Below, piece after piece: positions 3,791 to 48,040 of a stretch of DNA of 64,000 bases. Location: positions 4,916-68,915 of the forward strand of contig JAXDGL010000014.1 in the NCBI GenBank assembly GCA_034665065.1, in the 5' to 3' direction. The first letter of the stretch is position 1. Each line of letters begins with the position of its first letter. The notes under the pieces are model-generated. The model had not been told where the DNA came from. It saw only the letters and a program-made list of their open reading frames with translations, and searched no databases. This DNA comes from Thermoanaerobaculia bacterium. GTDB taxonomy: Bacteria; Acidobacteriota; Thermoanaerobaculia; Gp7-AA8. The translations under genes and the position numbers were made by a program.

Positions 3791-3932
3791 GCTGGACGCT
3801 GGTTCCGACCGGCGGCTTATTCTCGCATGTAACGGCGCGCTCTCCCGATTCGTCTAGAACGTGGGACGCACCAACCGGGTAAGGGCCTTTGTCCGCAACG
3901 TCCGGCATCTCACTATCATCGGAGCACACTTC

Positions 3933-31442: not shown

Positions 31443-33278
31443 GTGCTTACGGTTCAGAATTCCAACAGAAAGCGGCAACCTCGACGAATGCTTCAGGATC
31501 TCCTCTACCCCTTCGATGCCGCCCACCTTTTGCGGCATCGCAAACGTATTCGCCGGCAGTTGCTGGAAGGCAGCAACTGGATCGACATCCGAATTGCCAC
31601 CCTTGCCGGAAGCACCGCGCAAGAGGTGCTCGATCTCCTCGAGTTGTTCCTTCTCAATGACGGAATCCGCCCCACGTTTTACCAGTCGGACTACAACCGC
31701 TACTACGAGGAGGCGCTGTTCGACAGCGCGCGGCTCGAAGAGTTCCAGCCGGATCTCGTCTACGTCCACACGTCCGCGGTCAACGTCCACCACCACCCGA
31801 CGATCACGTCCACCGCTGACGAGATCGCAGAGCTCATCGAATCGGAAGTGAATCGCTACGAATCGATCTGGAAGGCGGTCACGGAAAAGACGCGCTGTCA
31901 GGTGATTCAGAACAACTTCGAGGCTCCCGCAACACGGGGCACGGGGAGTTTCGACTATGCGTCGCCATCGGGACGAACGCGCTTCTTCACGCTTCTCAAC
32001 GCCGCGATGGCGCAGCGAGCGTCGAACGGCCGGCGAGTCGTCATGCACGACCTTGCAACGGCCGCATCGATCACCGGTCTCGATCAGTGGAGCGATCCCG
32101 CACGATGGTTCAGCTACAAGATTTCCACCACTCCCGCGGGCAGCGCGATGTGGGCTCATTCGCTGGCCAACACGATTCGGGCGATCTATGGCCGCTCGCG
32201 CAAATGCCTCGTTCTCGATCTCGACAAGACGCTGTGGGGTGGCGTGATCGGCGACGACGGCGCCGGCAACATCCGCATCGGGCGGGAAACAGCCGAGGGA
32301 GAGGCGTTCACGGCATTTCAGGAGTATTGCCTGGCGCTGCAGCAGCGCGGAGTGATTCTGGCAGTCTGCTCGAAGAATGAGGACCTCATCGCCAGAGAAG
32401 GTTTCGCACATCCCGCGACCACTCTGCGGCTCGAACATTTTTCCGCGTTCGTGGCGAACTGGGAACCGAAATCCGAGAACATCCGCCGCATCGCGTCGAC
32501 GCTCAACATCGGCCTGGACAGCATGGTCTTCGTCGATGACAACCCGGCGGAGCGCGAGATCGTACGTTCGCAGCTTCCGGCAGTGGCTGTTCCCGAAGTC
32601 GGCGACGACGTGAGCCGCTATCCGCTCATGATCGACCGCGGCGGCTACTTCGACATCGTCACGCTGTCATCCGACGACATCAATCGCAGCAGGCAGTACG
32701 CCGCCAACGAAGAACGGACCGCCCTGAGCGGGGCGTACGGCAGCTATGGCGATTATCTGACCGCTCTCACGATGCGCGCGGAGATCGCGCCGTTCCGCGA
32801 CGTATACCTCGAGCGAATCACGCAGCTCACGAACAAAACGAATCAGTTCAATCTCACCACACGGCGCTACACGATGAGCGAGATCGCCGAGATCGCATCC
32901 GACCCGCGTTACATCACGCTGTATGGCCGCCTCGAAGACCGATTCGGCGACAATGGGCTGGTGAGCGCGATCATCGGCCGCAAGGAAGAATCCGCGCTGC
33001 ACATCGATCTCTGGCTGATGAGCTGCCGCGTGATTCAGAGAGAGATGGAGCTGGCGATGCTGGACGCGCTTGTCGAGAAGGCGCTCGACGCCGGCATCCA
33101 GACGATCAACGGCTGGTACGAACGGACTCCGAAGAACAACATGGTGGCCGATCACTACGCCAGGCTCGGATTCACGAAAGTCCCCGCTGCGGATGACGGC
33201 AGCAGGAGCGACTGGATCCTCGATCTTCGTTCCGGCTATGCCCCTCGCAATACACACATCGAAAGGATTGCCCTTTGA
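31443..33278 (+). CDS. FkbH-like HAD-superfamily (subfamily IIIC) protein with an N-terminal extension of about 230 aa; probable loader of a glycolysis-derived glyceryl unit onto a carrier protein
   Basis: HAD motif I (CLVLDLDKTLWGGVIGDDG), FVDDNPAEREIV, and C-terminal regions recalled from FkbH/OzmB-type proteins. The start may instead be the Met at codon 16. Confidence 0.75.
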   Translation: MLTVQNSNRKRQPRRMLQDLLYPFDAAHLLRHRKRIRRQLLEGSNWIDIRIATLAGSTAQEVLDLLELFLLNDGIRPTFYQSDYNRYYEEALFDSARLEEFQPDLVYVHTSAVNVHHHPTITSTADEIAELIESEVNRYESIWKAVTEKTRCQVIQNNFEAPATRGTGSFDYASPSGRTRFFTLLNAAMAQRASNGRRVVMHDLATAASITGLDQWSDPARWFSYKISTTPAGSAMWAHSLANTIRAIYGRSRKCLVLDLDKTLWGGVIGDDGAGNIRIGRETAEGEAFTAFQEYCLALQQRGVILAVCSKNEDLIAREGFAHPATTLRLEHFSAFVANWEPKSENIRRIASTLNIGLDSMVFVDDNPAEREIVRSQLPAVAVPEVGDDVSRYPLMIDRGGYFDIVTLSSDDINRSRQYAANEERTALSGAYGSYGDYLTALTMRAEIAPFRDVYLERITQLTNKTNQFNLTTRRYTMSEIAEIASDPRYITLYGRLEDRFGDNGLVSAIIGRKEESALHIDLWLMSCRVIQREMELAMLDALVEKALDAGIQTINGWYERTPKNNMVADHYARLGFTKVPAADDGSRSDWILDLRSGYAPRNTHIERIAL

Positions 33279-33514
33279 CCGACACACTGGAGAGACTGCA
33301 GCCCATTTTCCGCGATGTTCTCGACGATCCAAAGCTGGTGATCGATCGCCAGTCGAACGCACGCAATGTCGAGGGGTGGGACTCGCTGGCGCACATCAAT
33401 CTGATCGCTTCGATCGAACAGGACTTCCACGTCCGCTTCGCGCTCGGCGAGCTGCAGGATCTCGAGAACGTCGGTGACATGATCGACCTCATCGAACGGA
33501 AGCAGCAGACGTGA
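33275..33514 (+). CDS. Acyl carrier protein (ACP-1)
   Basis: 79 aa with the phosphopantetheine attachment motif EGWDSLAHINL. 4-nt overlap with the FkbH-like gene. Confidence 0.85.
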   Translation: MTDTLERLQPIFRDVLDDPKLVIDRQSNARNVEGWDSLAHINLIASIEQDFHVRFALGELQDLENVGDMIDLIERKQQT

Positions 33515-33930
33515 ACGAATACCGGTGGGCGGATCTGGCCATCGGGATGCGCGAGCAGTTTGCGGTCCTCATCGAAGAATCGACGGTCGACGCGTTCGTT
33601 GCGCTGACAGGCGACATCAATCCTCTTCACGCCGATTCCGATGCGGCGCGCGAAGCCGGGTTTCATACGCGCCTCGTTCACGGTCTGCTCACCACTTCCT
33701 ATTACTCGACGCTCGTCGGCGTCTACCTGCCGGGGCGCTACGCTCTGCTTCAGGGTATCGATGTCAAATTCGCACTTCCGGTCTACCCGGGCGATACTTT
33801 GACGGTGTCGGGCGAGATCACCTTTCTGAGCGAAGCGGTTCGTCTGGCGGAGATCGCCGGCGAAATCCGCAACGGAGAAGGAGCGCGCATTTCGAAAGCG
33901 AAGATACGAGTAGGTATCCGTGAGCGATGA
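33511..33930 (+). CDS. MaoC-like (R)-specific hydratase/dehydratase (hotdog fold)
   Basis: ALTGDINPLHADSDAAREAGFHTRLVHGLLT hotdog active-site region. 4-nt overlap with the ACP gene. Confidence 0.8.
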   Translation: MNEYRWADLAIGMREQFAVLIEESTVDAFVALTGDINPLHADSDAAREAGFHTRLVHGLLTTSYYSTLVGVYLPGRYALLQGIDVKFALPVYPGDTLTVSGEITFLSEAVRLAEIAGEIRNGEGARISKAKIRVGIRER

Positions 33931-34675
33931 ATCGATTCTCATTACCGGCGCATCCTCCGACATCGGGGAGGCGCTCGTCAGGCGGCTCGCGGCGAGCAAC
34001 GCAGCGCGCCCGCTGATCTGTCACTACAGCAGCGGCCGAACGCGGATCGAAGAACTTCAGAAAGAGCTCGGTCCATCCATCGTCCCGATGCGGGGCGACT
34101 TCTCATCGAGCGCATCGATCGACGCATTCATCGAGTCGCTCCGCGCCGCCAACGTTGCTCCCTACTCCTTCGTGCATCTTCCCGCCAGCAAGCTCCGCTA
34201 TGAGCGATTTTCGAAGCAGACGCGGTTACAGTTCGAGCGCGATTGGCAGATCCAGGTCGGCTCGGCGATCGCAATCCTCCAATACTCGCTGGCCGGGCAG
34301 AAGCGGCTCTCCGACAAGCAGCTCCCCCGCCGCCGCGTCGTCTTCGCCCTTTCCAGCGTCACCCTCGGCACTCCGCCGAAATACCTATCGATGTACACGG
34401 CGATCAAGTACGCGCAACTCGGCCTCATGCGGTCACTGGCCGTCGAGTACGGCGACCTCGGCGTATCGGTGAATGCCGTTTCGCCGTCGATGGTGGAGAC
34501 GCAGCTTCTTTCCGAAGTGCCGCGGCAGATCGTCGAGACCAGTCAGTCGCAGAATCCGATGGGACGCAACGCCACTCCCGGCGATGTCGCAGCGGTAATC
34601 GAGTTTCTCCTGTCTGATCAGGCAGACTTCATCAACGGCGCAAACGTTCCTGTAACCGGCGGCAGCATTCTCTGA
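33920..34675 (+). CDS. SDR-family oxidoreductase (FabG-like ketoacyl/acyl-carrier reductase)
   Basis: ILITGASSDIGEAL cofactor motif and a catalytic YTAIKYA (YxxxK) motif. Confidence 0.85.
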   Translation: MSDESILITGASSDIGEALVRRLAASNAARPLICHYSSGRTRIEELQKELGPSIVPMRGDFSSSASIDAFIESLRAANVAPYSFVHLPASKLRYERFSKQTRLQFERDWQIQVGSAIAILQYSLAGQKRLSDKQLPRRRVVFALSSVTLGTPPKYLSMYTAIKYAQLGLMRSLAVEYGDLGVSVNAVSPSMVETQLLSEVPRQIVETSQSQNPMGRNATPGDVAAVIEFLLSDQADFINGANVPVTGGSIL

Positions 34676-36114
34676 TGCCGTTCAACTCCTTCCCATTCGT
34701 TCTTCTGTTTCTGCCGGTCGTCGTCATCGCGTATCGGGCCGCACTCCGGATCTCCCCCGCCGCGGCCCGAGGAGCTTTGCTTCTCTCCTCGCTGCTCTTT
34801 TACGCGCTCAATAGCTGGAAACATCTGCCGGTCCTGATCGCAAGCATTCTCGTGAATTTCGTTGTCGCGCATCGGATCGCGCAGCAATCCGAGAGACGGC
34901 CGCGCGTTGTTTGGCTATGGGCCGGAATCGTTTTCAACCTTGGGCTCCTTTGTCTGTTCAAGTATGCGAGCACCCTCCCGCTGCTCTCCGTCGCCATTCC
35001 CTCCTGGGGATTTCCGCTCGGCCTGAGCTTTTTCACGCTGCAGCAGGTGGCATTGCTCGTCGACGTGTACGAGGAACTGCTCCCGCCGCAGCGACTCGGC
35101 ATGCATGCGCTGTTCGTCTCGTTTTTTCCCTACGTAACGGCCGGACCGATCAGCCGCGGCAAACGGATGTTTCCGCAGTTGGAGCGAGGAGGGAACGATC
35201 GCGATTACGCGTTCGATGCCGCTCGAGGCTTGGCGATTTTCGGCATGGGGTTGTTCAAGAAGGCCGTGTTCGCTGAATGCTTTCGGACGATCGCGGACAA
35301 AGGTCTCGATCACCCCTACCTACTCTCCTCACTCGAAGCGTGGATCTGTTCGTTCGCCTACACCATGCAGATCTACTTCGACTTCAGCGGCTACACCGAT
35401 ATGGCCATCGGCGTGGCACTCCTGATTGGCTTCGACATTCCGCGCAACTTCGACGCACCGTACCGCTCACGCTCCATCATCGAGTTCTGGCAGAGATGGC
35501 ACATCAGTCTCTCCCAGTTCATCACGACCTATCTCTACACGCCGATCATCCGCCTCTTCCGGCGGGCAACGTTGCGCGCCGCGGCAATCGCGACGATGGC
35601 GTCGATGCTCATCGCCGGGATCTGGCACGGCTCGTCATGGAACTTCGTGATCTTCGGCGGACTTCATGGTCTGGCTCTCGTGGCTAATCAGCTCTGGAAA
35701 AAGAAAACGAAGCGCCGCCTGCCGGCCCTGGCCGCGTGGGCGCTGACACTGACGTGGGTCAACCTTGCCTTCATCTTCTTTCGTCTGCCCGATCTCTCCT
35801 CCGCGCTGCATGTATCGCGGATGCTGATTCCGTTCGACAACCCTTTTGCAGGCTCGGCGATTTTTGTTTCTCCATCCGCGCGCAGCGGCGTCAAGGAGAT
35901 CGCGGACATCATGGCCCGTCCCGCTCTCTGGACGGTCGGACTGCCTGCATTGATCGCTGCACCGCTGGCTGTGCTTGGGCCAACGTCCCATTGGTGGCTG
36001 GACGATTTTCGCCCTACTCTGATCACCGCCGCGGCCATCGCGGCAATCCTTTTGATCGCGTTTCTCTTCATGAACTCAGCCAATGCAACCGACTTCATCT
36101 ACTTCCGGTTCTGA
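34675..36114 (+). CDS. MBOAT-family membrane-bound O-acyltransferase (DltB/AlgI/PatA type)
   Basis: Polytopic protein with the MBOAT signature region DAPYRSRSIIEFWQRWHISLSQF and a conserved His. Confidence 0.85.
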   Translation: MPFNSFPFVLLFLPVVVIAYRAALRISPAAARGALLLSSLLFYALNSWKHLPVLIASILVNFVVAHRIAQQSERRPRVVWLWAGIVFNLGLLCLFKYASTLPLLSVAIPSWGFPLGLSFFTLQQVALLVDVYEELLPPQRLGMHALFVSFFPYVTAGPISRGKRMFPQLERGGNDRDYAFDAARGLAIFGMGLFKKAVFAECFRTIADKGLDHPYLLSSLEAWICSFAYTMQIYFDFSGYTDMAIGVALLIGFDIPRNFDAPYRSRSIIEFWQRWHISLSQFITTYLYTPIIRLFRRATLRAAAIATMASMLIAGIWHGSSWNFVIFGGLHGLALVANQLWKKKTKRRLPALAAWALTLTWVNLAFIFFRLPDLSSALHVSRMLIPFDNPFAGSAIFVSPSARSGVKEIADIMARPALWTVGLPALIAAPLAVLGPTSHWWLDDFRPTLITAAAIAAILLIAFLFMNSANATDFIYFRF

Positions 36115-37036
36115 AAAAGGAGCGAGCGTTTCCGACGCTCTCCCGCGGCCACGGTTGAGCGCCGCCGCATGGTCGCGCATCGTGATTCTCACCGTCGCCG
36201 TAATCGGCGGCTCGTTCGCGGCGATGAACCACTACCTCGACCCGATGGGCGTCTTTCATTCCAAACCTCACGTCAGCATCTACACCAACGAGCGATGGTC
36301 GAAATACCTGTTGAGTACGCGTTACGTGCCCGAGAACTTCGACGCAGTACTCGTCGGCACGTCGGCCACGGACAACTGGAACACGGGCCTGATTCTGCCG
36401 CTGCGCACGTACAACCTGTCGCTCGAAGGGGGAAACGCGTCCGAGGCAAGGGTGCTGCTCGAGAATGTGATCAGGCGCAGAAGACCGAAGATCGTTTTCT
36501 TCTGCATCCATCCGTACCTCACTGCAAGCTACGGGCGCCAGACTCCCTACATGACGAAGGCTGACTACTGGAGCGCGCTCGGCTCACTCGAGTTGCTGAG
36601 GACCTATCAGGGCGAACTGCGCGTGAAGCGAGGTACGAGCCAGCAGGAGTTCAATGAGTTCGGCCAGCGATTCTTCAATATTCCGGCTCGCCCGTGGCAT
36701 GCCACATTCAATGGAGCCGATTGGTATCGCGTCGACGAACGCTCCCTCGCGGACTACGGCGCCATGGTGGCGAATGCAAGAGCCTCGGGCGCGCGCATCG
36801 TTGCAGTCGTTCCGCCCGTGGCGACGGAGTTTTGGCAACTGGCGGGGACCGCGTTTCAGGGATACCAACGGCAGCTCATGCCGTTCTTTCACGAAGGCGA
36901 TCTCGTGATCGACTTCAACACTCCCCCTTACGATTCTCTGCGATCCGATCGTGCGAATTTTCCCGACGGTATCCACCTCACCACGTCTGCAGCGGACGCA
37001 TTTGTGAGAGAGCTGGCGAGATTGGTCAGCCGCTGA
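36083..37036 (+). CDS. Membrane-anchored periplasmic partner of the MBOAT protein (AlgJ/AlgX/DltD-type acyltransferase/esterase-like)
   Basis: N-terminal TM anchor (WSRIVILTVAVIGGSFAAM) followed by a soluble domain of about 280 aa. Position immediately after the MBOAT gene with a 32-nt overlap. Confidence 0.5.
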   Translation: MQPTSSTSGSEKGASVSDALPRPRLSAAAWSRIVILTVAVIGGSFAAMNHYLDPMGVFHSKPHVSIYTNERWSKYLLSTRYVPENFDAVLVGTSATDNWNTGLILPLRTYNLSLEGGNASEARVLLENVIRRRRPKIVFFCIHPYLTASYGRQTPYMTKADYWSALGSLELLRTYQGELRVKRGTSQQEFNEFGQRFFNIPARPWHATFNGADWYRVDERSLADYGAMVANARASGARIVAVVPPVATEFWQLAGTAFQGYQRQLMPFFHEGDLVIDFNTPPYDSLRSDRANFPDGIHLTTSAADAFVRELARLVSR

Positions 37037-37061: not shown

Positions 37062-37934
37062 ATGAGCGATCCCTGGTATTTCAGCGACTTGGCGTGTCCC
37101 GATTGCGCGGGTCCGATCGAGATCTCTGAAGACAGCCTCACGAGTCGTTGCGGCTTCCAGGCTCCGCTCGCAAAACAACTCGACCTCCGGCCGCAACATC
37201 CGCGGCCACGCACCGTCAGCGTGAATGTCCAGACATCCGCTCCCGAGGATCTGGAGAAGATCGATCTCGCCCGCCCCGACGTGACCTACTCTGGTCCGTC
37301 CGCAATCCGCGACTCTGCCGAGCTGCTCTCCGCTGTCCAGCCGTACCTCCGCACCGGAGCGCGTCTGCTCGACCTCGGATGCGGACCGCGCGACCAGTTC
37401 AGGCCCGCCGAGCATCTCGACCTGCAGTACGTCGGCATCGACTTCGAGTCAGAGAAAGCCGACATCCTGGCAGATGGTCACGCCATTCCCTTCGGTGACG
37501 CCGCGTTCGACGCCGTATTTTCGTACGCGGTTCTCGAGCACCTGCACACACCGTCGCTTGCACTATCGGAAGTCGCGCGCGTGCTCCGCAAGGGAGGGGT
37601 GTTCTTCGGAACCGTGTCGCAAGGAGAGCCGTTTCACAACTCGTTTTTTCACTACACGGCATGGGGCGTGCTCGCCGCGTTTCGGTCCGCCGGCCTGCGC
37701 GCCGTGCGGCTCTGGCCTTCCTACGACACTCTGCACGCACTTGCTGGGATGGGGCGATATCCCCGATTGACCAAACTTCTGATCGAGCTCACCTATCGAT
37801 TCTCAGAAGCCACGCCGTTCCTCGCGCCACGAGCCTTTCTGCACAGCTCGAAGCGCCAGAAGGAAGTGGAGCGAATTCATCGCGCCGCAAGCATCTGTTT
37901 CGTGGCCCTGCACGACGACGCGTGGAACGCTTGA
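37062..37934 (+). CDS. Class I SAM-dependent methyltransferase with an N-terminal Cys4 zinc ribbon
   Basis: CPDC...C N-terminus, motif I (LLDLGCGPRD) and motif post-II (LRKGGVFFGTV). Confidence 0.75.
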   Translation: MSDPWYFSDLACPDCAGPIEISEDSLTSRCGFQAPLAKQLDLRPQHPRPRTVSVNVQTSAPEDLEKIDLARPDVTYSGPSAIRDSAELLSAVQPYLRTGARLLDLGCGPRDQFRPAEHLDLQYVGIDFESEKADILADGHAIPFGDAAFDAVFSYAVLEHLHTPSLALSEVARVLRKGGVFFGTVSQGEPFHNSFFHYTAWGVLAAFRSAGLRAVRLWPSYDTLHALAGMGRYPRLTKLLIELTYRFSEATPFLAPRAFLHSSKRQKEVERIHRAASICFVALHDDAWNA

Positions 37935-37952
37935 ACGACGAGGGATCGATGC

Positions 37953-38507
37953 TCAGCCACTGCGCTCGCCGATGACGCGCGCCGGAACGCCGGCAACGAT
38001 CGCATTCGGCGGAATGTCCTTGGTAACCAGCGAACAGGCAGAGACGATCGCGCCATCTCCGATCGTGACTCCCGCCGCGATCACCGACTGCGGATAGATG
38101 GTGACGTCGTTTCCGATCGCTACCGGCGCACAGCGAATCCCCTGCTCATCCGTCCGCTGCCCTCGTCCGGCAACGTGAGAGTGATCCGAGATAACGACGT
38201 GCGCACCAATAAGGCTGTGCGACCCAATCGTGATCGACTCGGCGGCATGGATGACACAGCCGGTGGCGAGAAATGAGTAGCTGCCAATCTCCAGGCGCGC
38301 CGTCTCACTCACGATCTTGATGTAGACGCCATGCTCGATCTCCACGTGATCACCGAGGAGCATGCATTGCGGCAAGCGAAATCGGGCACCAGTGCCGATC
38401 TGGCTCTTGGTTCCGATCCGAGCGCCACGAAGACGCAGGAACATCGCCCGGACACGTCCGGCGACCAGTCTCGACAGACGCCCCAACCGCTCCAGAGCGT
38501 GCGTCAT
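37953..38507 (-). CDS. Hexapeptide-repeat (LbH) acyltransferase
   Basis: Repeated [LIV]GxxxxI hexapeptides (IGSYSFLATGCVIHAAESITIGSHSLIGAHVVISDHSHV). The start is taken at the internal Met (MTHALERL), as the upstream part of the ORF is low-complexity. Confidence 0.8.
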   Translation of the reverse strand: MTHALERLGRLSRLVAGRVRAMFLRLRGARIGTKSQIGTGARFRLPQCMLLGDHVEIEHGVYIKIVSETARLEIGSYSFLATGCVIHAAESITIGSHSLIGAHVVISDHSHVAGRGQRTDEQGIRCAPVAIGNDVTIYPQSVIAAGVTIGDGAIVSACSLVTKDIPPNAIVAGVPARVIGERSG

Positions 38508-38636
38508 CGCGGCTGTCTGTTCCCGATCTGGTTCCGTCGTTGCGGCGCGATCGTCATCCCGCCGATTATCGCAGGTCTGCTGCGCGCAAACCCGGCAAGC
38601 GATGAATCGCACGTCGCGATCGTTGCCCTACGACCG

Positions 38637-38876
38637 TCACTGCCGAAGCTTCCGCTCGAGCAGATCGGCCATGTCTCCAACGGTCTTCAACGACTGTACT
38701 TCGCCCACGGAGAAGCGGAACGCAAATTCCTTCTCGATCGACGTGATCAGGCTGATCTGCGCGAGGGAGTCCCAGTTCTCGACATTCGCCGGACTCGATT
38801 CGCGCGTCAGCACGAACGACGGCTCGTCGAGGACGTCGCGGAAGATGGGCTCCAGGCGTTGAAGAATGTCGGACAT
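38637..38876 (-). CDS. Acyl carrier protein (ACP-2), paralog of ACP-1
   Basis: 79 aa with ENWDSLAQISL. About 55% identical to ACP-1 over the full length (MSDILQRLEPIFRDVLDEP.. versus MTDTLERLQPIFRDVLDDP..). Confidence 0.8.
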   Translation of the reverse strand: MSDILQRLEPIFRDVLDEPSFVLTRESSPANVENWDSLAQISLITSIEKEFAFRFSVGEVQSLKTVGDMADLLERKLRQ

Positions 38877-38883
38877 CGTCGGT

Positions 38884-40869
38884 CTAGTGCGCGCGCGAAT
38901 GGTAAATGATCCATGATCCGGAACGAGTTACCGGATCCCAGAACGGCGACTTGATTTCCCGATCGACGAGCAGATAGTCCGCTTCGCGGGCGATGCTGCC
39001 GGCAGCGATAGGGTTCGCCGGATCGCGCATGAACGCGGACCATAGCGCGACGCGTCCCGCCATGGAAGAGCCGGGCGCTGGAACAACAAATTGCTCGGTA
39101 TTCGGTGTGGGAAGCCAGACCCGACGCTCGGCGATCCAGAGCGTCGGCAGCACGTCGCGCATCGTCAGTCCGCCGGGGTCGGCCACAATCGAATCCTTTG
39201 GCGTGTTGTCACGGAGCCAAAGCAGCGCGTCGTAGTAATCGCGCGCCAGCGTCTCGCCGCGCGATCGCGATCCGGTGAGCCGGTAGAACGGAAACTGAAG
39301 GACATACGCGGACGTCTGCATTGCGCCAAGCACCATGAGCAGCATGGCGACAATCGTTTGCCAGCCCCGCATCGAGCCCGACATCCATCGATCGAACGTC
39401 ACCACGATGAGCGGCGCGAATGCAATCGCCAGCATCGAGCCGGTCTTCATCGAGAAGTCGATCTGGCCTGTCGGACTGCCGGCGACGTAGAGAAACGACG
39501 GCACTACGATCGACGTAACGATCAGAACATGAAGGAAGCGCAGCGGCTGCCTGCCGCCGAGAAGCAGCAGGCCCCATAGCGGAAGCATCCCGAGAATCAC
39601 GATGCGAAGGAACTGCCCGCGGTCGAACAGCACGGCCGCATGGCGCGCGCCGCCGGAGCCGAGCACATGGATGGCGACGAACATCGCGATCGAAGCGCCA
39701 CCGATCGCGATCGCCGCGATCAAAACGGTGACCGGCCGTGCGATCCGCCCCATCGCCAGCCAGAGAAGCAGCGCGGCCACGAGCGGTAAGAGCAACGTCA
39801 CGCTGTAGCCGGTCACCATCGACAACGCAATCGTTCCCAGAATTACGTCGAGAACGCGCCGCTCGCGATTCCATCGCTCCACGAACATCGCTGTCAGAAG
39901 AACGAGCACGAGCGCGAACGTGTTGTTCCCGAACACGATCATGCTGTTCACCGGCGCGAGAATCAGATGGTTCCGCTCGGGCATGGCCAAAGGGCCGAGA
40001 GGAAGCCGGGCCGCGAGCAGTTGGTAGTAGTAGAGAGAGAACGGCGCGAACAGGGTCACCACAACCGCCAACTGCACCGCACGGCGATGCAGCGTTGTGT
40101 TGAGCGAGGAGACCGCCTCAGTCACCGTATGAATCAGGAGCGCCGCCATCAGCAGATTGCCGAGAATGAGCGCGTTGCTCGCCGGAATCGACGCGCCGCA
40201 AAAGTCCGCCAACGTCGCCGGCAGCGTGAAGTAGAGCCAGTGATAGTTCATCGGCCCGCCGCCGGCGATGCTGTCCAGCGGCAGCATCGGTGACGCGCGC
40301 AACAACGCCACAACGGACACGAGATTGCCGAAGTCGATGGCGAATAGCCCATGAAACAGCACGTCGCGGCCCGACGAGGCTGCGTAGCCGAGCCACACGA
40401 GTGCGAACAGCAGAGGCAGAACGATCAGCACGACGAACCGGGAGCGCCTCAGCGCCGGGCCGAGCTCGTCGAACGTTGTCCTCACCTCGCCAAACTTTGC
40501 CGCTGCTCCGATGAGAATCAGACACCCTGCGATGTCCGTAACCGCCGGAAGAAACGGCAATGCCTTGCGCAGAAAAAACCAAGGTACGACGAGCATGACG
40601 ACGAGCGCGCTCGCCGCCGTGATCCGGAGATCGGCCGGCATCGCCCGAATGTGCGGGATGCGCAGAGCGAGAACGCCCGCAGGAAGAAGAAACCCCGCCA
40701 CGAACACGATGAAGACCGCCGCCGCCAACACGCTGCCTGCCAGGTCAACGAGAATGAGCGCATCGAGCAGGACGACCACGGCGATTAAAGCAGTCCTCGC
40801 CGCAGACGACGACGTTCGGACCTGCGCCAGCGATGAATCCGAAGGATTCATGAGCAGCCGGCCGCCCAT
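38884..40869 (-). CDS. Large polytopic membrane protein with a C-terminal periplasmic domain of about 130 aa; possible polymerase or GT-C-like protein
   Basis: 661 aa with more than 12 TM helices. Directly upstream of ACP-2 and the LbH acyltransferase. Confidence 0.55.
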   Translation of the reverse strand: MGGRLLMNPSDSSLAQVRTSSSAARTALIAVVVLLDALILVDLAGSVLAAAVFIVFVAGFLLPAGVLALRIPHIRAMPADLRITAASALVVMLVVPWFFLRKALPFLPAVTDIAGCLILIGAAAKFGEVRTTFDELGPALRRSRFVVLIVLPLLFALVWLGYAASSGRDVLFHGLFAIDFGNLVSVVALLRASPMLPLDSIAGGGPMNYHWLYFTLPATLADFCGASIPASNALILGNLLMAALLIHTVTEAVSSLNTTLHRRAVQLAVVVTLFAPFSLYYYQLLAARLPLGPLAMPERNHLILAPVNSMIVFGNNTFALVLVLLTAMFVERWNRERRVLDVILGTIALSMVTGYSVTLLLPLVAALLLWLAMGRIARPVTVLIAAIAIGGASIAMFVAIHVLGSGGARHAAVLFDRGQFLRIVILGMLPLWGLLLLGGRQPLRFLHVLIVTSIVVPSFLYVAGSPTGQIDFSMKTGSMLAIAFAPLIVVTFDRWMSGSMRGWQTIVAMLLMVLGAMQTSAYVLQFPFYRLTGSRSRGETLARDYYDALLWLRDNTPKDSIVADPGGLTMRDVLPTLWIAERRVWLPTPNTEQFVVPAPGSSMAGRVALWSAFMRDPANPIAAGSIAREADYLLVDREIKSPFWDPVTRSGSWIIYHSRAH

Positions 40870-40999
40870 CCGGAACGCTGGCGTCCTCGCCGGCTTGCCC
40901 GGCGGCGTCTCGCCGCCGAGTGTAGGACGGGCGCCGGGCGCCTTCTGCTTCGCTCACGGCAGGTGGCTGGACGACAGCGCTCCAGCGAGCAAGAAGGCG

Positions 41000-42148
41000 T
41001 CACGCGCTCGCTCCGGCACGCGGGCGCCACGACCGTATCCGGTCGATCACCCGGCTCTGATCCTCGTCCGTCAGGTTGTTGTAGAACGGGAGCCGCAGCA
41101 ATCGATCACTGGCGCTCTCCGCAACCGGACACTGTCCCTCACGTCCGCCGAAGTGCATCCCCATCTCCGAGGTGTTGAGCGGCAGGTAGTGAAATACAGC
41201 GTAGATCTCCTGCGCGCGCAGATGCGCGATCATCGACGTCCTCGCTTCGAGCGACTCGAACAGCAGGTAGAACATGTGAAAGGGCTGTTCGCAACCGTCG
41301 GGAACGGCCGGCCTCCTCACGCCGCAGCCGGCTGCCCAATCCGCAAGCTCGGCGTCATACCTCTCCCACACTCTCCGCCTCTTCCCCTGAATCACCTCGG
41401 CCTTCTCCATCTGGCCGACCAGATACGCCGCCAGCATGTCCGACGGCAGATAGCTCGATCCGATATCGACCCATGTGTACTTGTCGACCTGACCGCGAAA
41501 GAAGCGGCTGCGGTTCGTGCCTTTCTCGCGGATGATCTCCGCCCGCTCGATGAGCGCCGGATCGTTGATGACGAGCGCGCCCCCTTCCCCGCAGTTGATG
41601 TTCTTGGTTTCGTGAAAACTCTGTGTGGCCATCCGCCCGAACGTCCCCAACGGCCGCCCGTGGTATCTACCGAACAGACCATGCGCGTTGTCTTCGATGA
41701 CGTCGAGTCCATGGCGCCGGGCGATATCCATGATCGCATCCATCTCGCAGCCGACTCCTGCGTAGTGCACCGGCGCGATGGCGCGCGTGCGGGGCGTGAT
41801 CAGCGATTCGAGTTGCGCTTCGTCGATGTTGAGCGTGTCCGGCCGGATGTCCGCAAACACCGGCACCGCACCGCGCAGGACGAACGCATTGACGCCGGAG
41901 ACAAACGTGAACGAAGGAACGATGACTTCATCGCCGGCGCGGAGATCGAGCAGAATCGCCGCCATCTCCAGCGCATGCGTGCAGGAGGTCGTCAGCAACA
42001 CCTTCGGCGCACCGAGGATCGACTCCAGCATCGTGTTCCCGCGCTTGGTGAACGCGCCGTCGCCGGAGATGTGAAGCGCGGAAATCGCCTCTCGCACCAG
42101 ATCCAGCTCCCTCCCTTCGACAGCCGGCTTGTTGAACGGTATCGTCAT
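41000..42148 (-). CDS. DegT/DnrJ/EryC1/StrS-family sugar aminotransferase (WecE/ArnB-like NDP-4-keto-6-deoxyhexose transaminase)
   Basis: MTIPFNKP N-terminus and a PLP-lysine region (SFHETKNINCGEGGALV). The start is at the internal Met of the track ORF. Confidence 0.85.
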   Translation of the reverse strand: MTIPFNKPAVEGRELDLVREAISALHISGDGAFTKRGNTMLESILGAPKVLLTTSCTHALEMAAILLDLRAGDEVIVPSFTFVSGVNAFVLRGAVPVFADIRPDTLNIDEAQLESLITPRTRAIAPVHYAGVGCEMDAIMDIARRHGLDVIEDNAHGLFGRYHGRPLGTFGRMATQSFHETKNINCGEGGALVINDPALIERAEIIREKGTNRSRFFRGQVDKYTWVDIGSSYLPSDMLAAYLVGQMEKAEVIQGKRRRVWERYDAELADWAAGCGVRRPAVPDGCEQPFHMFYLLFESLEARTSMIAHLRAQEIYAVFHYLPLNTSEMGMHFGGREGQCPVAESASDRLLRLPFYNNLTDEDQSRVIDRIRSWRPRAGASA

Positions 42149-42337: not shown

Positions 42338-42904
42338 ATGGCAATCAGACAACCGATATCAGCGGAGACGCTGGAGGCAGGAGAAGTTTCCGTTCGCCTG
42401 CGACCAGTGGCACTCGACGACGCCGAGAGGATGTTCGCCTGGATGTGTGATCCTGATGTCCGCCGCAATGTAGGAGTGCGCGCTGAGCCGTCTCTCGAAG
42501 CTACATTGTCCTGGATCGACCGCGCGGAAGTCGATGAAGGTACGCTAGCGTGGGCTATCGAGGCCTCCGGCCGGCACGTCGGCAATTTAGTCCTCGACCA
42601 ACTCGATCCGATGGTTCAAAGCGTCAGGCTTTCCGTCTACATAGGGGAAAAGGATCTACGGAGCAAGGGTATTGCCGGAAAAGCGATCACGCTGGCGCTC
42701 ACTGATGCATTCGAACAGAGGGGAATCCAGAAAGTCTGGCTCACGGTCGTTATTGATAATACCTCAGCAATTCGTTGCTACCACCGCTGCGGATTCCGCA
42801 TCGAGGGCATCCTTCGACAAACCTTTTTCGCAGGTAACGCAATCAAGGACGCCTTCTATATGGGCATCACCCGCAGAGACTATGATTCGATGAATCCGGC
42901 ATGA
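42338..42904 (+). CDS. GNAT-family N-acetyltransferase (WecD-like candidate acting on the aminotransferase product)
   Basis: GNAT core (RSKGIAGKAITLALTDAFEQRGIQKVWLTVVIDNTSAIRCYHRCGF). The start is taken at the internal MAIRQ Met. Confidence 0.7.
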   Translation: MAIRQPISAETLEAGEVSVRLRPVALDDAERMFAWMCDPDVRRNVGVRAEPSLEATLSWIDRAEVDEGTLAWAIEASGRHVGNLVLDQLDPMVQSVRLSVYIGEKDLRSKGIAGKAITLALTDAFEQRGIQKVWLTVVIDNTSAIRCYHRCGFRIEGILRQTFFAGNAIKDAFYMGITRRDYDSMNPA

Positions 42905-43584
42905 GATGTGTAATTCTCCAGCCGTCCTACATTCCCTGGCGCGGCTACTTCGATCTCATCCGCCGCGCGGACGTCTTCGTATTCTACGACGATGTTCAGT
43001 ATGACAAGCACGGCTGGCGAAACAGGAACCGAATCAAGACCCCGCAAGGAACTCAGTGGATCACCATTCCCGTACGCAGTAAGTCGAACGTGGTCCAAGG
43101 GTTAAGCATCGGGGAAGTCCGAATCGCAGGGAACCACTGGGAACAAAAGCATCGACGAACTCTGACACAAAACTACAGGTCCGCGCCCTTCTTTGACGAC
43201 GAAATCCTGAACGAAATCTATGACGATCCGCCCGAACTGCTGTGTGAGTTGACGATCCGATCGACAATTGCACTCGCTCGACGGCTGGGCTATACCAATA
43301 CGCAATTCTTCCGTTCGTCGGACTTCGGCTTCAAGGACGGCCGGACTGATCGTTTGATTGCGATATTGCGGCACCTTGGTGCCACTGAGTACCTCAGCGG
43401 CCCGTCCGCAAGCGATTACATCGATCAGACAAAGTTCGACAGCGCCCGGATCAAACTTGAATGGATCCAATACGACTATCCGGAGTACCCTCAGCTATAT
43501 CCGCCGTTTGATCCATTGGTGTCCATCATCGACCTGATGTTCATGACCGGCCCAGACGCCGCCAGATTCATTTCCAGAATCTGA
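42901..43584 (+). CDS. WbqC-like family protein (function unknown; recurrently found in O-antigen loci)
   Basis: N-terminus MRCVILQPSYIPWRGYFDLI matches the WbqC-like family signature. ATGA overlap with the GNAT gene. Confidence 0.75.
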   Translation: MRCVILQPSYIPWRGYFDLIRRADVFVFYDDVQYDKHGWRNRNRIKTPQGTQWITIPVRSKSNVVQGLSIGEVRIAGNHWEQKHRRTLTQNYRSAPFFDDEILNEIYDDPPELLCELTIRSTIALARRLGYTNTQFFRSSDFGFKDGRTDRLIAILRHLGATEYLSGPSASDYIDQTKFDSARIKLEWIQYDYPEYPQLYPPFDPLVSIIDLMFMTGPDAARFISRI

Positions 43585-45767: not shown

Positions 45768-46565
45768 TTACTCCGCTGGCTGTCTGAACTTCCGCTGATC
45801 GGGTGGAGCGTAATACTCATCGAGAGACGCCGGTACTTGACTCAGGAAACCAAGTTTTTGAAGAACGCGATCCGGCAAGCCCGTCAGATCGCGGCCGGCC
45901 AGCATTCGCGGGATATCAAGGCGCTGCTTCATAAAGGGACGGCACATATTAAGCGTTAAGGCGTGGCGCCACGCTGATGTCCTGTTTGTTCCGCCGCGAT
46001 GCCACGTGCGAGCGTTAAAATACCACACCGACCCGGCAGGAACGACCAGACGCTCAGCACCGGCAAGAAACTCTTCTTCGGAAGGCGCATCGACCCGCAT
46101 ATGAGACCGTGGCAAATAATACGTCGCGCCATTTTCTACGGTGAAATCGTCCAATGCGATCGTTACTCCGAGATTCGTTATGAACCCTGGAATCACGCGT
46201 GGACAATCCACATGAATGCGCGCCGAATAATTTGATTCGTGCGGCGGCATCGAGGAGGATGTGTACGCATAAATAATACAGCCTGGCCCTAGAATGTCGT
46301 CAATCACGTCCATCAACGGTGGATGATTAAGCAAGTCCAGAAAAACCCTACCGTGCATAAAGCAGGCAAGAACCATCCCATAATCGCCGTAGTCCGTCCC
46401 ACCGTGGTATCCGGCCTCGGCCACGATCGCAACTTGAAGTGCCTTCTTCAGTTCCTCTATTTGAGAACGGTCCAAGACACTTCGCTCCACAATGGACCCC
46501 TCCGCCTCAATGCGTGCTCGCCGCCCCGCACGACGTAGCTGGTCCCTTAAGCCGGGCGATGTCAT
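45768..46565 (-). CDS. PhyH-family Fe(II)/2-oxoglutarate-dependent dioxygenase
   Basis: HVDCP (HxD) and a distal WHRGGTNRT His, in a jelly-roll context. Confidence 0.75.
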   Translation of the reverse strand: MTSPGLRDQLRRAGRRARIEAEGSIVERSVLDRSQIEELKKALQVAIVAEAGYHGGTDYGDYGMVLACFMHGRVFLDLLNHPPLMDVIDDILGPGCIIYAYTSSSMPPHESNYSARIHVDCPRVIPGFITNLGVTIALDDFTVENGATYYLPRSHMRVDAPSEEEFLAGAERLVVPAGSVWYFNARTWHRGGTNRTSAWRHALTLNMCRPFMKQRLDIPRMLAGRDLTGLPDRVLQKLGFLSQVPASLDEYYAPPDQRKFRQPAE

Positions 46566-47509
46566 AGACGGTATTTGCTCCGAATCACATAGAGTGGGCG
46601 ACCCTGCACTTCCTTGAGGACTCGACCAATATAAATGCTTCCAAGTCCAGTCACGAGAATCTGTAAACCACCAAAGAACACGATCATCGATACGGTCGAT
46701 GCGTATCCGGGTTGATAATTAACAAGCCATAGTTTTTGAACAATTATCACACCCAGAGACAGAAATCCACATAAGGCGACAGCAAAACCAAACATTGCCA
46801 TGAGTCGCAAAGGAAGATCAGAAAAAGAGATGACAGATTCGATAGCCATCCTCAGTCGCGAGCGGAAGGAGTAACTGGAACGACCAACCTTCCGTTTTTG
46901 GTGGCGCACAGACACATATCCATGTTTGAACCCTAGCCAGCTCTCAAGCCCTGGGAGATACCGGGCGCGCTCCTCAAGAGAATTGTATGCTTCCACGAAC
47001 GTACGATTCATGACTCGCAACGTAGACACGTTTGTGGGAACACGTGCCCCAGTCAACCAGTTCAGAGTGTGCGCAAATGCCAAGGAAGTGATACGTCGGC
47101 TGAACGGCACATTCCGCGCACCATACAAACCGTAAACAATGTCGTGGTCGCCGTTTTCCAGAACCGCAAGAAGGTTCGGGATCTCGCCGGGGGGATCTTC
47201 CATGTCGACATTCAACATCCCCACGAAATTGCCGGATGCATGGTGATAGCCACAGGAGACGGCGATATGCTGGCCGAAATTCCGGCTGAGCGAGATACTC
47301 TTCGCGAACAAGAAGGTCTCACATACCTTGCGAAGCTGAATGTCGGAGTCGTCGCCGCTGCCATCGTTGACGAAGATCAGTTCCACTTGGGATGTGAGGT
47401 CGATGATCGAGAGGTACTGCTGGAAAACTTGCTCGAACTCTGCAGCGAACGCACGTGCCAGGCGGCCATCGTTGTAGATTGGGACGACGAATGAGTAACG
47501 GATGGTCAT
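46562..47509 (-). CDS. GT2 polyprenyl-phosphate sugar transferase (ArnC/GtrB/DPM1-like) with C-terminal TM helices
   Basis: YSFVVPIYND...IFVNDGSGDDS, a DxD motif and two C-terminal TM helices. GC is markedly lower, about 45%. Confidence 0.8.
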   Translation of the reverse strand: MTIRYSFVVPIYNDGRLARAFAAEFEQVFQQYLSIIDLTSQVELIFVNDGSGDDSDIQLRKVCETFLFAKSISLSRNFGQHIAVSCGYHHASGNFVGMLNVDMEDPPGEIPNLLAVLENGDHDIVYGLYGARNVPFSRRITSLAFAHTLNWLTGARVPTNVSTLRVMNRTFVEAYNSLEERARYLPGLESWLGFKHGYVSVRHQKRKVGRSSYSFRSRLRMAIESVISFSDLPLRLMAMFGFAVALCGFLSLGVIIVQKLWLVNYQPGYASTVSMIVFFGGLQILVTGLGSIYIGRVLKEVQGRPLYVIRSKYRL

Positions 47510-47674
47510 AAACAGGTGTGAGATGATAGACGAAATCACGTGCAGGAGGGCTGAGGTAGGAGGCGCCGGCGTAACTCACCCAACCTCCCACCCATCAGGA
47601 GCGCAGGCTTCGCACTCCGCGCCACCTTTCCTGGAGATCGTGCACACGCCCGCTGCGGCGCCGGAGAGTAGGGC

Positions 47675-48040
47675 ATGAACGGGCGAGTCCGACCTTCCTC
47701 ATTTCTTTTCCTTACTTTGGCAGTCGGATTTCAATCTGCAGCCGTGGTCTCGGGCAAGGCCGCCGCCATGCAAATGGGCACGCCAACATTGGGAGCGTTC
47801 CTGAGCAACAGATGGTACGTCGCAAGTCTCACTTGCCTCGTACTCCAGGCGCTTTTCTGGCAACTCGTGCTCCGCGAGGTTCGGCTCTTCGTCGCCTACC
47901 TGTTCTCGGGCTTCAGCTATTTCTTGGTACTGATCGCAAGTCACGTCATCTTCATGGAACATGTGACCGGTGCGAACTGGGCCGGGGTGCTTGCAATCAT
48001 CGTGGGGATTTCCCTCGTGATCAGGGAGGATGTCGCGTGA
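47675..48040 (+). CDS. Small 4-TM membrane protein (SMR/EamA-like; ArnE/ArnF-type flippase subunit candidate)
   Basis: 121 aa with four hydrophobic segments. Divergent from the ArnC-like gene. Confidence 0.5.
   Translation: MNGRVRPSSFLFLTLAVGFQSAAVVSGKAAAMQMGTPTLGAFLSNRWYVASLTCLVLQALFWQLVLREVRLFVAYLFSGFSYFLVLIASHVIFMEHVTGANWAGVLAIIVGISLVIREDVA

Follow-up and report, generated by a model that had tools for sequence, protein, structure and literature searches.

Introduction

The established precedent for a hexapeptide-repeat (LbH) enzyme that moves an acyl group from an acyl carrier protein (ACP) to a nucleotide sugar is provided by LpxA and LpxD, with O- and N-acylation as the outcome. In the Bacillus anthrose pathway (AntC/AntD), the LbH enzyme AntD N-acylates dTDP-4-amino-4,6-dideoxyglucose; it takes its acyl group from 3-hydroxy-3-methylbutyryl-CoA and uses no carrier protein. 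For the tetronate side chain of Vibrio cholerae O1 (rfbK-O), a short hydroxy-acid is N-linked to a 4-amino-6-deoxyhexose by way of a carrier protein, and the acid is activated by an AMP-ligase and not by FkbH; our literature search returned no paper on the V. cholerae tetronate genes. In D-alanylation by the Dlt system (DltA-D), the carrier is loaded by the adenylating enzyme DltA, and the acyl group passes from the carrier to an MBOAT protein and a membrane-anchored SGNH-like protein. The Arn pathway (the aminotransferase ArnB, ArnC, ArnE/F, ArnT) handles the amino sugar L-Ara4N.

FkbH/ACP modules belong to polyketide pathways, in particular those for tetronates and methoxymalonyl-ACP. Together with a stand-alone ACP, FkbH generates glyceryl-ACP, and the tetromadurin cluster contains two FkbH/ACP pairs which maintain two carrier pools for two different consumers (PMC7489565). 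Here we describe a stretch of 64,000 nucleotides from a Thermoanaerobaculia bacterium (the window), in which an FkbH cassette within a polysaccharide locus faces a second ACP gene (ACP-2) and an LbH acyltransferase gene. These two genes probably serve to decorate a sugar of the cell surface with a hydroxy-acid of three carbons.

Results

The cassette on the plus strand begins with an FkbH-like glyceryl-ACP loading enzyme (31488..33278) that scores 293.6 bits against TIGR01686 (cut-off 146.65) and also matches HAD-IIIC (65.6 bits versus 35.75). Its stop codon is overlapped by the start codon of ACP-1 (33275..33514), which carries the motif WDSLAH (PP-binding, 31.3 bits) and groups with its counterparts from the MBOAT-type cassettes of the related loci L019, L105 and L106. 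There follow, on the same strand, genes for a MaoC-type dehydratase (33511-33930; PF01575, 67.3 bits), an SDR reductase (33920-34675; adh_short in the gene call), a DltB-like MBOAT (34675-36114; PF03062, 90.4 bits, above cut-off) and a membrane-anchored SGNH/DltD-like protein of 317 aa (36083-37036; weak GDSL match). An FkbH above cut-off followed by a 79-aa stand-alone ACP, a dehydratase and a reductase is likewise the composition of polyketide FkbH modules. Unlike these, the cassette is part of a polysaccharide locus that lacks a PKS, its dehydratase is of the MaoC type and its SDR stands alone, and its presumed consumers are LbH and MBOAT enzymes. The proposed ACP-1 route would share with Dlt the plan of carrier, MBOAT and membrane-anchored SGNH-like protein, but here the carrier would be loaded by FkbH instead of DltA. 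Moreover, the MBOAT remains under the cut-off of the DltB equivalog TIGR04091 (195 versus 375 bits), and the DltD-like protein, in which the motifs GTS (S94) and D295-G-I-H298 are invariant, has no match to Pfam DltD and none in the PDB by sequence or profile search. We sought a second FkbH in the window and found none. Since this FkbH is the sole one of the locus, we propose that it loads both ACP-1 and ACP-2; in contrast to the tetromadurin-type pairs, one FkbH thus appears to serve two ACPs.

ACP-2 (38637..38876, minus strand) encodes 79 aa, and our analysis confirmed the reading frames that the earlier note had placed on either side of it, with the LbH gene on one side and the gene for a 661-aa membrane protein on the other. 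The unit is convergent to the FkbH cassette, as the same note had described, a methyltransferase gene ending at 37934 and the LbH gene at 37953. PF00550 (PP-binding) recognizes ACP-2 above cut-off (26.0 versus 20.8 bits). All NCBIfam AcpP equivalog models remain below theirs (28 versus 71), so that ACP-2 can be taken, as previously suggested, for a locus-specific paralogue and not the housekeeping AcpP. The conserved serine is intact: the predicted phosphopantetheine site W35-D36-S37-L38 (WDSLAQ) lies at the start of helix II and is retained in 7/7 members of the ACP-2 clade. Paralogy to ACP-1 stands as well, at 62% identity (47/76 residues, gap-free, E = 6e-37) and not the ~55% given before. 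We could not uphold the idea that ACP-2 is a duplication within the locus. The ACP-2 clade is separate, with 98.6% bootstrap, while a sister grouping of ACP-1 and ACP-2 obtains 14%. To judge from the phylogeny, ACP-2 is no recent local copy of ACP-1 but belongs, as its carrier, to a distinct cassette lineage that is paralogous and here reduced to ACP and LbH. Its dN/dS of 0.06-0.22 is in the same range as that of ACP-1, indicative of purifying selection. A search over 5.8 billion proteins yielded only 8 clusters of the ACP-2 clade, and wherever the gene context of a member could be retrieved, LbH is present.

The LbH gene, which encodes the proposed acyl-ACP-2 off-loading enzyme, lies on the same strand. 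Its longest open reading frame spans 37953-38612 with a GTG start. Homologues measure 181-185 aa and one gene caller chose the ATG at 38507; the true protein therefore most likely has 184 aa (37953..38507, minus strand). Among NCBIfam models the best matches are the WcaF family (84.4 bits), LacA (72.8) and WbbJ (66), all under equivalog cut-offs, and LacA of the PDB is found with E = 2.3e-17 by sequence and 6.7e-27 by profile. By these matches the protein belongs to the LacA/Maa/WcaF class. The LpxA/LpxD type proposed by the earlier note does share the LbH fold, but the LpxD model NF002060 reaches 36.1 bits (cut-off 207) over just 50 residues, and LpxA (TIGR01852) is absent among the 25 best families listed. 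The closest solved fold to the LbH model is AntD (PDB 3vbi), matched over nearly the whole chain; the comparison is one of the overall fold, the two being 23% identical in sequence, and LacA and Maa outscore AntD by sequence. The catalytic-loop histidine is found in D108-H109-x-H111, which is invariant in our alignment (A6) and aligned to the TGHP loop of LacA. The LbH protein belongs to an ACP-linked subclade with about 20 fixed substitutions at sites near-invariant in 105-110 of 111 relatives. Its members have lost the conserved Trp of the LacA-type VWIG motif, replaced by Thr (T136), and the GAG/GAV coil motifs, with GxGAV changed to SxCSL (S156-x-C158-S159-L160). These substitutions are spaced by ~18 residues and would thus lie on one face of successive LbH coils. 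Two intermediates, P0026 and P0015, share some of them, and neither context shows linkage to an ACP.

Upstream of the LbH gene, 57-68 nt before its start codon, lies the element CCTGCGATAATC (38564..38575, minus strand), kept in 6/7 aligned loci and in both cassette architectures, with a single exact occurrence in the window. It is possibly an extended -10-like promoter for LbH. A consensus scan of positions 37700-41200 called no promoter, the element included, and one weak terminator, within the gene for the 661-aa protein; Rfam gave no match over the window. Given this conserved upstream element and a gap of 129 nt between ACP-2 and LbH, the latter is not translationally coupled to ACP-2, which weighs against the explanation favoured below.

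The related loci all come from metagenome-assembled genomes of uncultured organisms. In L003/L004, L107 and L108 the order MEM661-FkbH-ACP-MaoC-SDR-LbH-GT is read in one direction, MEM661 being the 661-aa membrane protein; in L007 it is FkbH-ACP-MaoC-LbH-MEM661 and the SDR is absent. A 56-aa reading frame directly upstream of LbH in L003 was checked as a second ACP and is not one. The carriers of these full cassettes share 77-82% identity with ACP-2, and the LbH proteins 72-78% with that of the window. Their FkbH, MaoC and SDR proteins are only 53-67% identical to those of the window, whereas the values for the MBOAT-type cassettes (L019, L105, L106) are 69-81%, and this split points to two paralogous cassette lineages. 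In the window, L105 and L106, MEM661-ACP2-LbH stands opposite an MBOAT cassette and the second cassette is reduced to ACP-2 and LbH alone. The pair in L106 is nearer to the full cassette of L108 (LbH 90%) than to the window (79%), from which it follows that ACP and LbH have been retained as a unit at least twice. In 7/7 distinct loci, an LbH gene of at least 72% identity has a co-oriented ACP-2-clade carrier gene 0.1-1.7 kb upstream, while ACP or FkbH accompanies relatives of 51-60% identity in 0/6 loci; since all seven linked loci belong to a single clade, these counts are not phylogenetically independent. Among related genomes the pair strictly follows FkbH cassettes; the lack of co-variation that the earlier note had named as speaking against its proposal is thus not observed.

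LbH is also directly adjacent in five distant FkbH-ACP cassettes that involve three LbH subfamilies: WcaF-like in L053, CysE/WcaB-like in L092 and L056, and NeuD/PglD/VioB-type in L037 and L064. An aminotransferase gene is found upstream of LbH in L037 and downstream of the ACP in L064. The recognition helix differs between MBOAT-partnered and LbH-partnered carriers, for example at Ser+3, which is His in the former and Gln or Asn in most of the latter. A rule that His at this position denotes an MBOAT partner is weakened by L056 and L064, whose LbH-adjacent carriers also have His.

MEM661 (38884..40869, minus strand) is in the same operon as ACP-2, its stop codon preceding the start of ACP-2 by 7 nt. 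It is a conserved protein, represented by 104 protein clusters, of which 0 have a Pfam domain, and no family model matches it. The structural model predicts a multi-helix GT-C membrane domain with a C-terminal periplasmic domain and resembles the glycosyltransferases ALG12 and ArnT; D112 and D179, candidates for the acidic residue that GT-C enzymes conserve in the first periplasmic loop, are invariant in 47 homologues. Further upstream lies a WecE-type dTDP-4-amino-4,6-dideoxyhexose aminotransferase (41000..42148, minus strand, a 382-aa gene call), which exceeds the cut-offs of NF008687 (556.9 versus 375 bits) and TIGR02379 (521 versus 434.85). Where the Arn pathway employs L-Ara4N, the sugar here would thus be of the dTDP-4-amino-4,6-dideoxyhexose type. 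Beside the aminotransferase are genes for a PseH-like GNAT and a WbqC protein; for the latter, sequence and profile searches of the PDB gave no match and our literature search found nothing on its function. MEM661 lacks any FkbH cassette in 15/16 genome loci and has the ACP-2/LbH pair in 0/16. By its fold and this distribution, it is a glycosyltransferase and a core partner of the aminotransferase, usually without ACP or LbH, which acts outside acyl transfer.

Discussion

The explanation we favour, at a probability of roughly 0.55, is that a second FkbH-type sugar-acylation cassette has left ACP-2 and LbH as its only survivors, with the lost activities supplied in trans by the convergent cassette and with acyl-ACP-2 as the donor for LbH. 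The full form of this second cassette would be FkbH-ACP-MaoC-SDR-LbH; of these, FkbH, dehydratase and reductase are missing here and would be replaced by those of the FkbH-ACP1-MaoC-SDR-MBOAT-SGNH-like cassette. FkbH would take a glyceryl unit from 1,3-bisphosphoglycerate and load it onto ACP-1 and ACP-2. Dehydration by MaoC and reduction by SDR would then yield what is probably lactyl-ACP, chemistry inferred from the FkbH-DH-KR loading modules of polyketide synthesis (FR901464, bryostatin). Other loci may carry a different acyl group than lactyl, since L007 has no SDR, and in the window we infer either lactyl or glyceryl. Acyl-ACP-1 would proceed to the MBOAT/SGNH-like pair for a Dlt-like glycan acylation outside the cytoplasm, and acyl-ACP-2 to the cytoplasmic LbH for transfer to a sugar precursor. 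Later, at the periplasmic face, the GT-C enzyme MEM661 would attach a sugar to the glycan, with no part in acyl transfer. The second acyl-transfer route with an FkbH-derived acyl group, put forward by the earlier note, is kept as the best reading, in which the donor (acyl-ACP rather than acyl-CoA), the acyl group and the acceptor are proposed.

As acceptor, the foremost candidate is the dTDP-4-amino-4,6-dideoxyhexose that the WecE-type aminotransferase produces, acylated at its amino group in analogy to AntD. Such an N-acylation is plausible because the best structural match of the LbH model is AntD. The alternative acceptor would be a sugar hydroxyl. Indeed, the PseH-like GNAT and WbqC could occupy the amino group, which would leave LbH an O-acyl role.

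The LbH protein might instead be an ordinary acetyl-CoA-dependent sugar O-acetyltransferase that accompanies FkbH cassettes as a further decoration gene, and ACP-2 a second carrier for FkbH and MBOAT, for example a differently regulated isoform, that donates nothing to LbH. Its best sequence matches, LacA, Maa, WcaF and WbbJ, would agree with this, and to our knowledge all characterised members of the LacA/Maa/WcaF class use acyl-CoA and none acyl-ACP. Relatives of 51-60% identity reside in plain glycosyltransferase/methyltransferase clusters without ACP, and a conserved element of its own precedes the LbH gene. We nevertheless regard this as rather unlikely. In L003, L107, L108, L053 and L092 there is no MBOAT and LbH is the sole acyltransferase that could unload the ACP. 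ACP-2-type carriers were never seen without LbH, and the loss of FkbH, MaoC and SDR has twice left exactly ACP and LbH. The subclade has moreover given up the Trp and GAG/GAV motifs that other LacA-type enzymes conserve.

A further possibility, of still lower probability, is that LbH modifies a carrier-bound intermediate, for example by acetylating the hydroxyl of glyceryl- or lactyl-ACP-2, and that another enzyme transfers the product. This would account for the strict linkage of ACP and LbH together with the CoA-type sequence affinity, and tetronate pathways do acetylate and then eliminate a glyceryl-derived hydroxyl (PMC7489565). However, the full cassettes conserve no other candidate for an off-loading acyltransferase, and AntD, the closest fold, binds a nucleotide sugar. 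The tetronate acetyltransferases are, as far as we know, not LbH enzymes, which also counts against this possibility.

The departure of FkbH, MaoC and SDR from its operon might suggest that the cassette is broken and that ACP-2 is what remains of it, without function and in decay; this is highly improbable with an intact 79-codon frame, the serine kept, a dN/dS like that of ACP-1 and survival in three dual loci that have diverged and go back to two origins. It is equally hard to credit the earlier note's view of LbH, ACP-2 and the 661-aa protein as one LpxA/LpxD-type acyl-transfer machine: the three genes do lie side by side in one direction, and among the 8 distinct cassette-bearing Thermoanaerobaculia loci the cassette abuts MEM661 wherever the flank is visible (the window, L003, L007, L019, L105, L106 and L107; the upstream flank of L108 lies beyond the sequence), but the GT-C fold of MEM661, its occurrence mostly without an FkbH cassette and the low LpxA/LpxD scores of LbH speak against such a trio.

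Lactyl, glyceryl and hydroxybutyryl decorations occur on O-antigens, capsules and exopolysaccharides, where they shape antigenicity and material properties. We know of no genes for most of these short hydroxy-acyl decorations. A full-text literature search, partial in its coverage so that earlier work may exist, returned nothing connecting FkbH with polysaccharide, capsule or O-antigen synthesis. Tentatively, FkbH-ACP(-dehydratase-reductase) cassettes may constitute widespread, so far undescribed modules for glycan decoration, in which a glyceryl- or lactyl-carrier is unloaded by interchangeable LbH enzymes in the cytoplasm or MBOAT/SGNH proteins outside, and, in loci like this one, a single FkbH pool is split by the identity of the carrier. 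If so, the LbH protein described here would be an acyl-ACP-dependent enzyme of the LacA/AntD class, of which we know no characterised example. The locus and its relatives point to a defined and testable route from FkbH via a carrier protein to LbH or MBOAT, and the natural variants, namely the full cassette, the reduced ACP and LbH pair and the MBOAT-only form, amount to a built-in experiment on the matching of carriers and transferases. Should LbH indeed take its acyl group from ACP-2, the reach of carrier-dependent chemistry would widen beyond LpxA/LpxD and include the LacA/AntD class.

Organization of the ACP-2 region

The window is contig sequence from a metagenome-assembled genome of the Thermoanaerobaculia (Acidobacteriota). 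Its large polysaccharide locus includes genes for an ABC transporter, epimerases and many glycosyltransferases, along with several uncharacterised membrane proteins. Four genes follow one another on its minus strand: a WecE-type aminotransferase (41000–42148; 557 bits with the dTDP-4-amino-4,6-dideoxygalactose transaminase model, cut-off 375), a 661-aa membrane protein (38884–40869), the carrier protein ACP-2 (38637–38876), whose start lies 7 nt past the stop codon of the 661-aa gene, and, after a gap of 129 nt, the hexapeptide acyltransferase LbH (37953–38507; most likely 184 aa, with the start codon corrected to a probable position at 38507). They face a plus-strand cassette encoding FkbH (TIGR01686, 294 bits), the carrier ACP-1, a MaoC dehydratase, an SDR, a DltB-like MBOAT, a membrane-anchored SGNH-like protein and a methyltransferase. 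The position of ACP-2 between LbH and the membrane protein, convergent to the FkbH cassette, is thus as the earlier note described it.

The SAM methyltransferase closing the MBOAT cassette (37062–37934, plus strand) might methylate a hydroxy-acyl group; it has an 83% identical counterpart in the related locus L105, and the same gene occurs at 57–62% identity near the cassette site in several other related loci. Four large ORFs of the window have no Pfam match: 23664–25217 (plus strand; 517 aa) and, on the minus strand, 25248–26840, 26942–28834 and 28831–30171 (530, 630 and 446 aa). Of these, the 446-aa one has conserved counterparts beside the cassette in L003, L007, L020, L022, L105 and L106.

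Two cassette lineages

ACP-1 and ACP-2 both contain the WDSL serine and align without gaps at 62% identity (E = 6e-37), so that the paralogy proposed before stands while the figure of about 55% given with it does not. The further proposal of a duplication within the locus fails on the phylogeny: bootstrap support is 98.6% for the ACP-2 clade, 78% for the ACP-1 clade and only 14% for the two as sisters, and ACP-2 therefore did not arise from ACP-1 by recent duplication in the locus.

Homologues of LbH at 74–78% identity led to full cassettes with all genes in one direction, in the order (661-aa gene)-FkbH-ACP-MaoC-SDR-LbH-glycosyltransferase in L003/L004, L107 and L108, and FkbH-ACP-MaoC-LbH-661-aa gene, lacking the SDR, in L007. 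Each has a single ACP, 77–82% identical to ACP-2, and no MBOAT. Their FkbH, MaoC and SDR proteins are only 53–67% identical to those of the window, compared with 69–81% for the MBOAT-type cassettes of L019, L105 and L106, which points to two paralogous lineages of cassettes with separate carrier clades. We consider this two-lineage origin of the carriers very likely.

L105 and L106 share the arrangement of the window, with the 661-aa gene, ACP-2 and LbH opposite an MBOAT cassette. The L106 ACP-2 and LbH resemble their counterparts in the full cassette of L108 (LbH 90% identical) more than those of the window (79%), so that the ACP-2/LbH pair has been retained as a unit at least twice. From these comparisons we read ACP-2 and LbH as a reduced second cassette, from which redundant FkbH, MaoC and SDR genes appear to have been lost, at least twice, while the pair was kept. 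The dN/dS of the ACP-2 clade, 'orphan' copies included, is 0.06–0.22, the same range as for ACP-1.

Genes for Y1-type (IS200-like) transposases lie near LbH-containing polysaccharide clusters (L004:11272–12231, L005:8915–9874), which fits frequent rearrangement of these loci. The L106 contig also carries a second carrier-protein system (1–4337; AMP-binding enzyme, formyltransferase-like protein, KAS III, ACP and ketoreductase) adjoining a GT2 gene, and an AMP-binding gene with another LbH is present at the left ends of L007 and L105.

Linkage of LbH to the carrier

Co-occurrence of the ACP-2/LbH pair with FkbH cassettes in related genomes, a check set out in the earlier note, is borne out. LbH proteins at least 72% identical to that of the window have an ACP-2-clade gene 0.1–1.7 kb upstream on the same strand in seven of seven distinct loci, which form one clade, so that the counts are not independent events; relatives at 51–60% identity have an ACP or FkbH in none of six loci, which are plain glycosyltransferase-methyltransferase-LbH clusters. 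The ACP-2 clade comprises only 8 clusters in a set of 5.8 billion proteins, and each member with recoverable context is accompanied by LbH. All relatives of the window locus come from uncultured genomes.

We also surveyed distant FkbH cassettes in 80 metagenome loci (L025–L104). An MBOAT lies within 6 kb of the ACP in about 25 of them, and an LbH gene is directly adjacent in five, representing three subfamilies: WcaF-like (L053), CysE/WcaB-like (L092, L056) and NeuD/PglD/VioB-type (L037, L064). Because LbH enzymes have repeatedly been recruited next to FkbH-ACP, this distribution argues, independently of the counts above, that they unload the carrier. Overall, we give functional coupling of ACP-2 and LbH a probability of roughly 0.65.

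The NeuD/PglD/VioB-family amino-sugar N-acetyltransferases (L037:1779–2405, L064:1811–2467; 194 and 166 bits, above the cut-off) lie directly upstream of FkbH, with an aminotransferase gene upstream of that LbH gene in L037 and downstream of the ACP in L064. A KAS III (FabH-like) protein beside the FkbH cassette of L045 (12464–13516) is another unloading candidate.

LbH is not coupled to ACP-2 at the level of translation. A conserved element of its own, CCTGCGATAATC (38564–38575, minus strand), precedes the LbH start codon by 57–68 nt; the exact match occurs once in the window, and the element is kept in six of seven related loci whether the upstream gene is ACP-2, SDR or MaoC. It may be an LbH-dedicated promoter, with TGnGATAAT as an extended -10-like sequence.

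A possibly remodelled acyltransferase

Assignment of LbH to the LpxA/LpxD type had to be abandoned (36 bits, cut-off 207); its nearest relatives by sequence are LacA, Maa, WcaF and WbbJ, a class membership that would be compatible with O- as well as N-acylation. The ACP-linked subclade shows about 20 fixed changes at positions nearly invariant in relatives, among them Trp to Thr in the LacA-type VWIG motif, GxGAV to SxCSL, E85V, D87H and F105V. The changed positions are spaced about 18 residues apart and thus lie on one face of successive coils, which we infer to be the pantetheine groove; judged from the alignment, they would fit a remodelling of the groove for the donor or the acceptor. To our knowledge, the LacA-class and AntD-type enzymes characterised so far take their acyl groups from CoA thioesters.

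The 661-aa protein and the amino-sugar branch

The 661-aa protein is without a match in Pfam or NCBIfam; its family is small (104 clusters) and nearly confined to Thermoanaerobaculia. Among 16 species-representative genomes encoding the family, an aminotransferase gene adjoins the 661-aa gene in every locus with the flank present, the WecE-type gene lying immediately upstream in 11, and the same GT2-like glycosyltransferase (Pfam Glyco_transf_7C) usually follows. An FkbH cassette is absent from 15 of the 16 loci and the ACP-2/LbH pair from all 16; the 661-aa gene is therefore a core gene, and the role suggested for its product as an acyl-transfer partner falls away. Its confident structure model (47-sequence alignment; pLDDT 90.9, pTM 0.92) predicts a GT-C glycosyltransferase rather than a component of acyl transfer; by analogy with Arn proteins, it probably transfers the amino sugar from a polyprenyl-phosphate carrier.

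An ArnC/PgfS-like polyprenyl-phosphate glycosyltransferase (GT2; 46562–47539, minus strand; 173 and 134 bits, below the cut-offs) adjoins two small plus-strand ORFs (47675–48040, 121 aa, without family match; 48037–48384, 115 aa, matching EamA); with the GT-C protein, these genes suggest a periplasmic branch of glycosylation based on a lipid carrier. A PhyH-family dioxygenase (45768–46565, minus strand) is a neighbour of the ArnC-like GT2, and in L107 (809–2539) GT2 and PhyH are fused in one 576-aa protein. A conserved neighbour of the WecE-type aminotransferase, in the window as in most related loci (L003, L014, L017–L022), is a WbqC-family protein (PF08889; window 42901–43584, plus strand), for which no PDB relative was detected by sequence or profile.

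A model for two carriers

In the model that we propose, one FkbH/MaoC/SDR set would load both carriers; ACP-1 would then serve the MBOAT/SGNH-like pair in an extracytoplasmic, Dlt-like route, and ACP-2 the cytoplasmic LbH. Helix II may be the site of carrier discrimination: the residue at Ser+3 is His (18) or Tyr (2) in 20 MBOAT-partnered carriers, never Gln or Asn, and Gln or Asn in four of six LbH-partnered lineages, a correlation that as raw counts without phylogenetic correction is suggestive. Conversion of glyceryl-ACP to lactyl-ACP by a dehydratase and a ketoreductase is known from the FR901464 and bryostatin loading modules, and we put a lactyl group here at even odds. The 4-amino group of the amino sugar, the acceptor first suggested, is plausible, at odds slightly under even; the amine could instead be occupied by a PseH-like GNAT or the WbqC protein, both encoded next to the aminotransferase.

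Unrelated metagenomes often contain cassettes of the FkbH-ACP-MBOAT and FkbH-ACP-MaoC-SDR-MBOAT types (e.g. L026:3666–8300, L084:15–4100). Full-text searches, with most subscription journals outside their coverage, found no link of FkbH to polysaccharide, capsule or O-antigen synthesis, and no description of a Dlt-like, FkbH-loaded system was found in the searchable literature. While carrier-protein-dependent acylation of glycans is known, an FkbH-derived acyl group, a transferase of the LacA/AntD class and the routing of two carriers to two transferases would be new.
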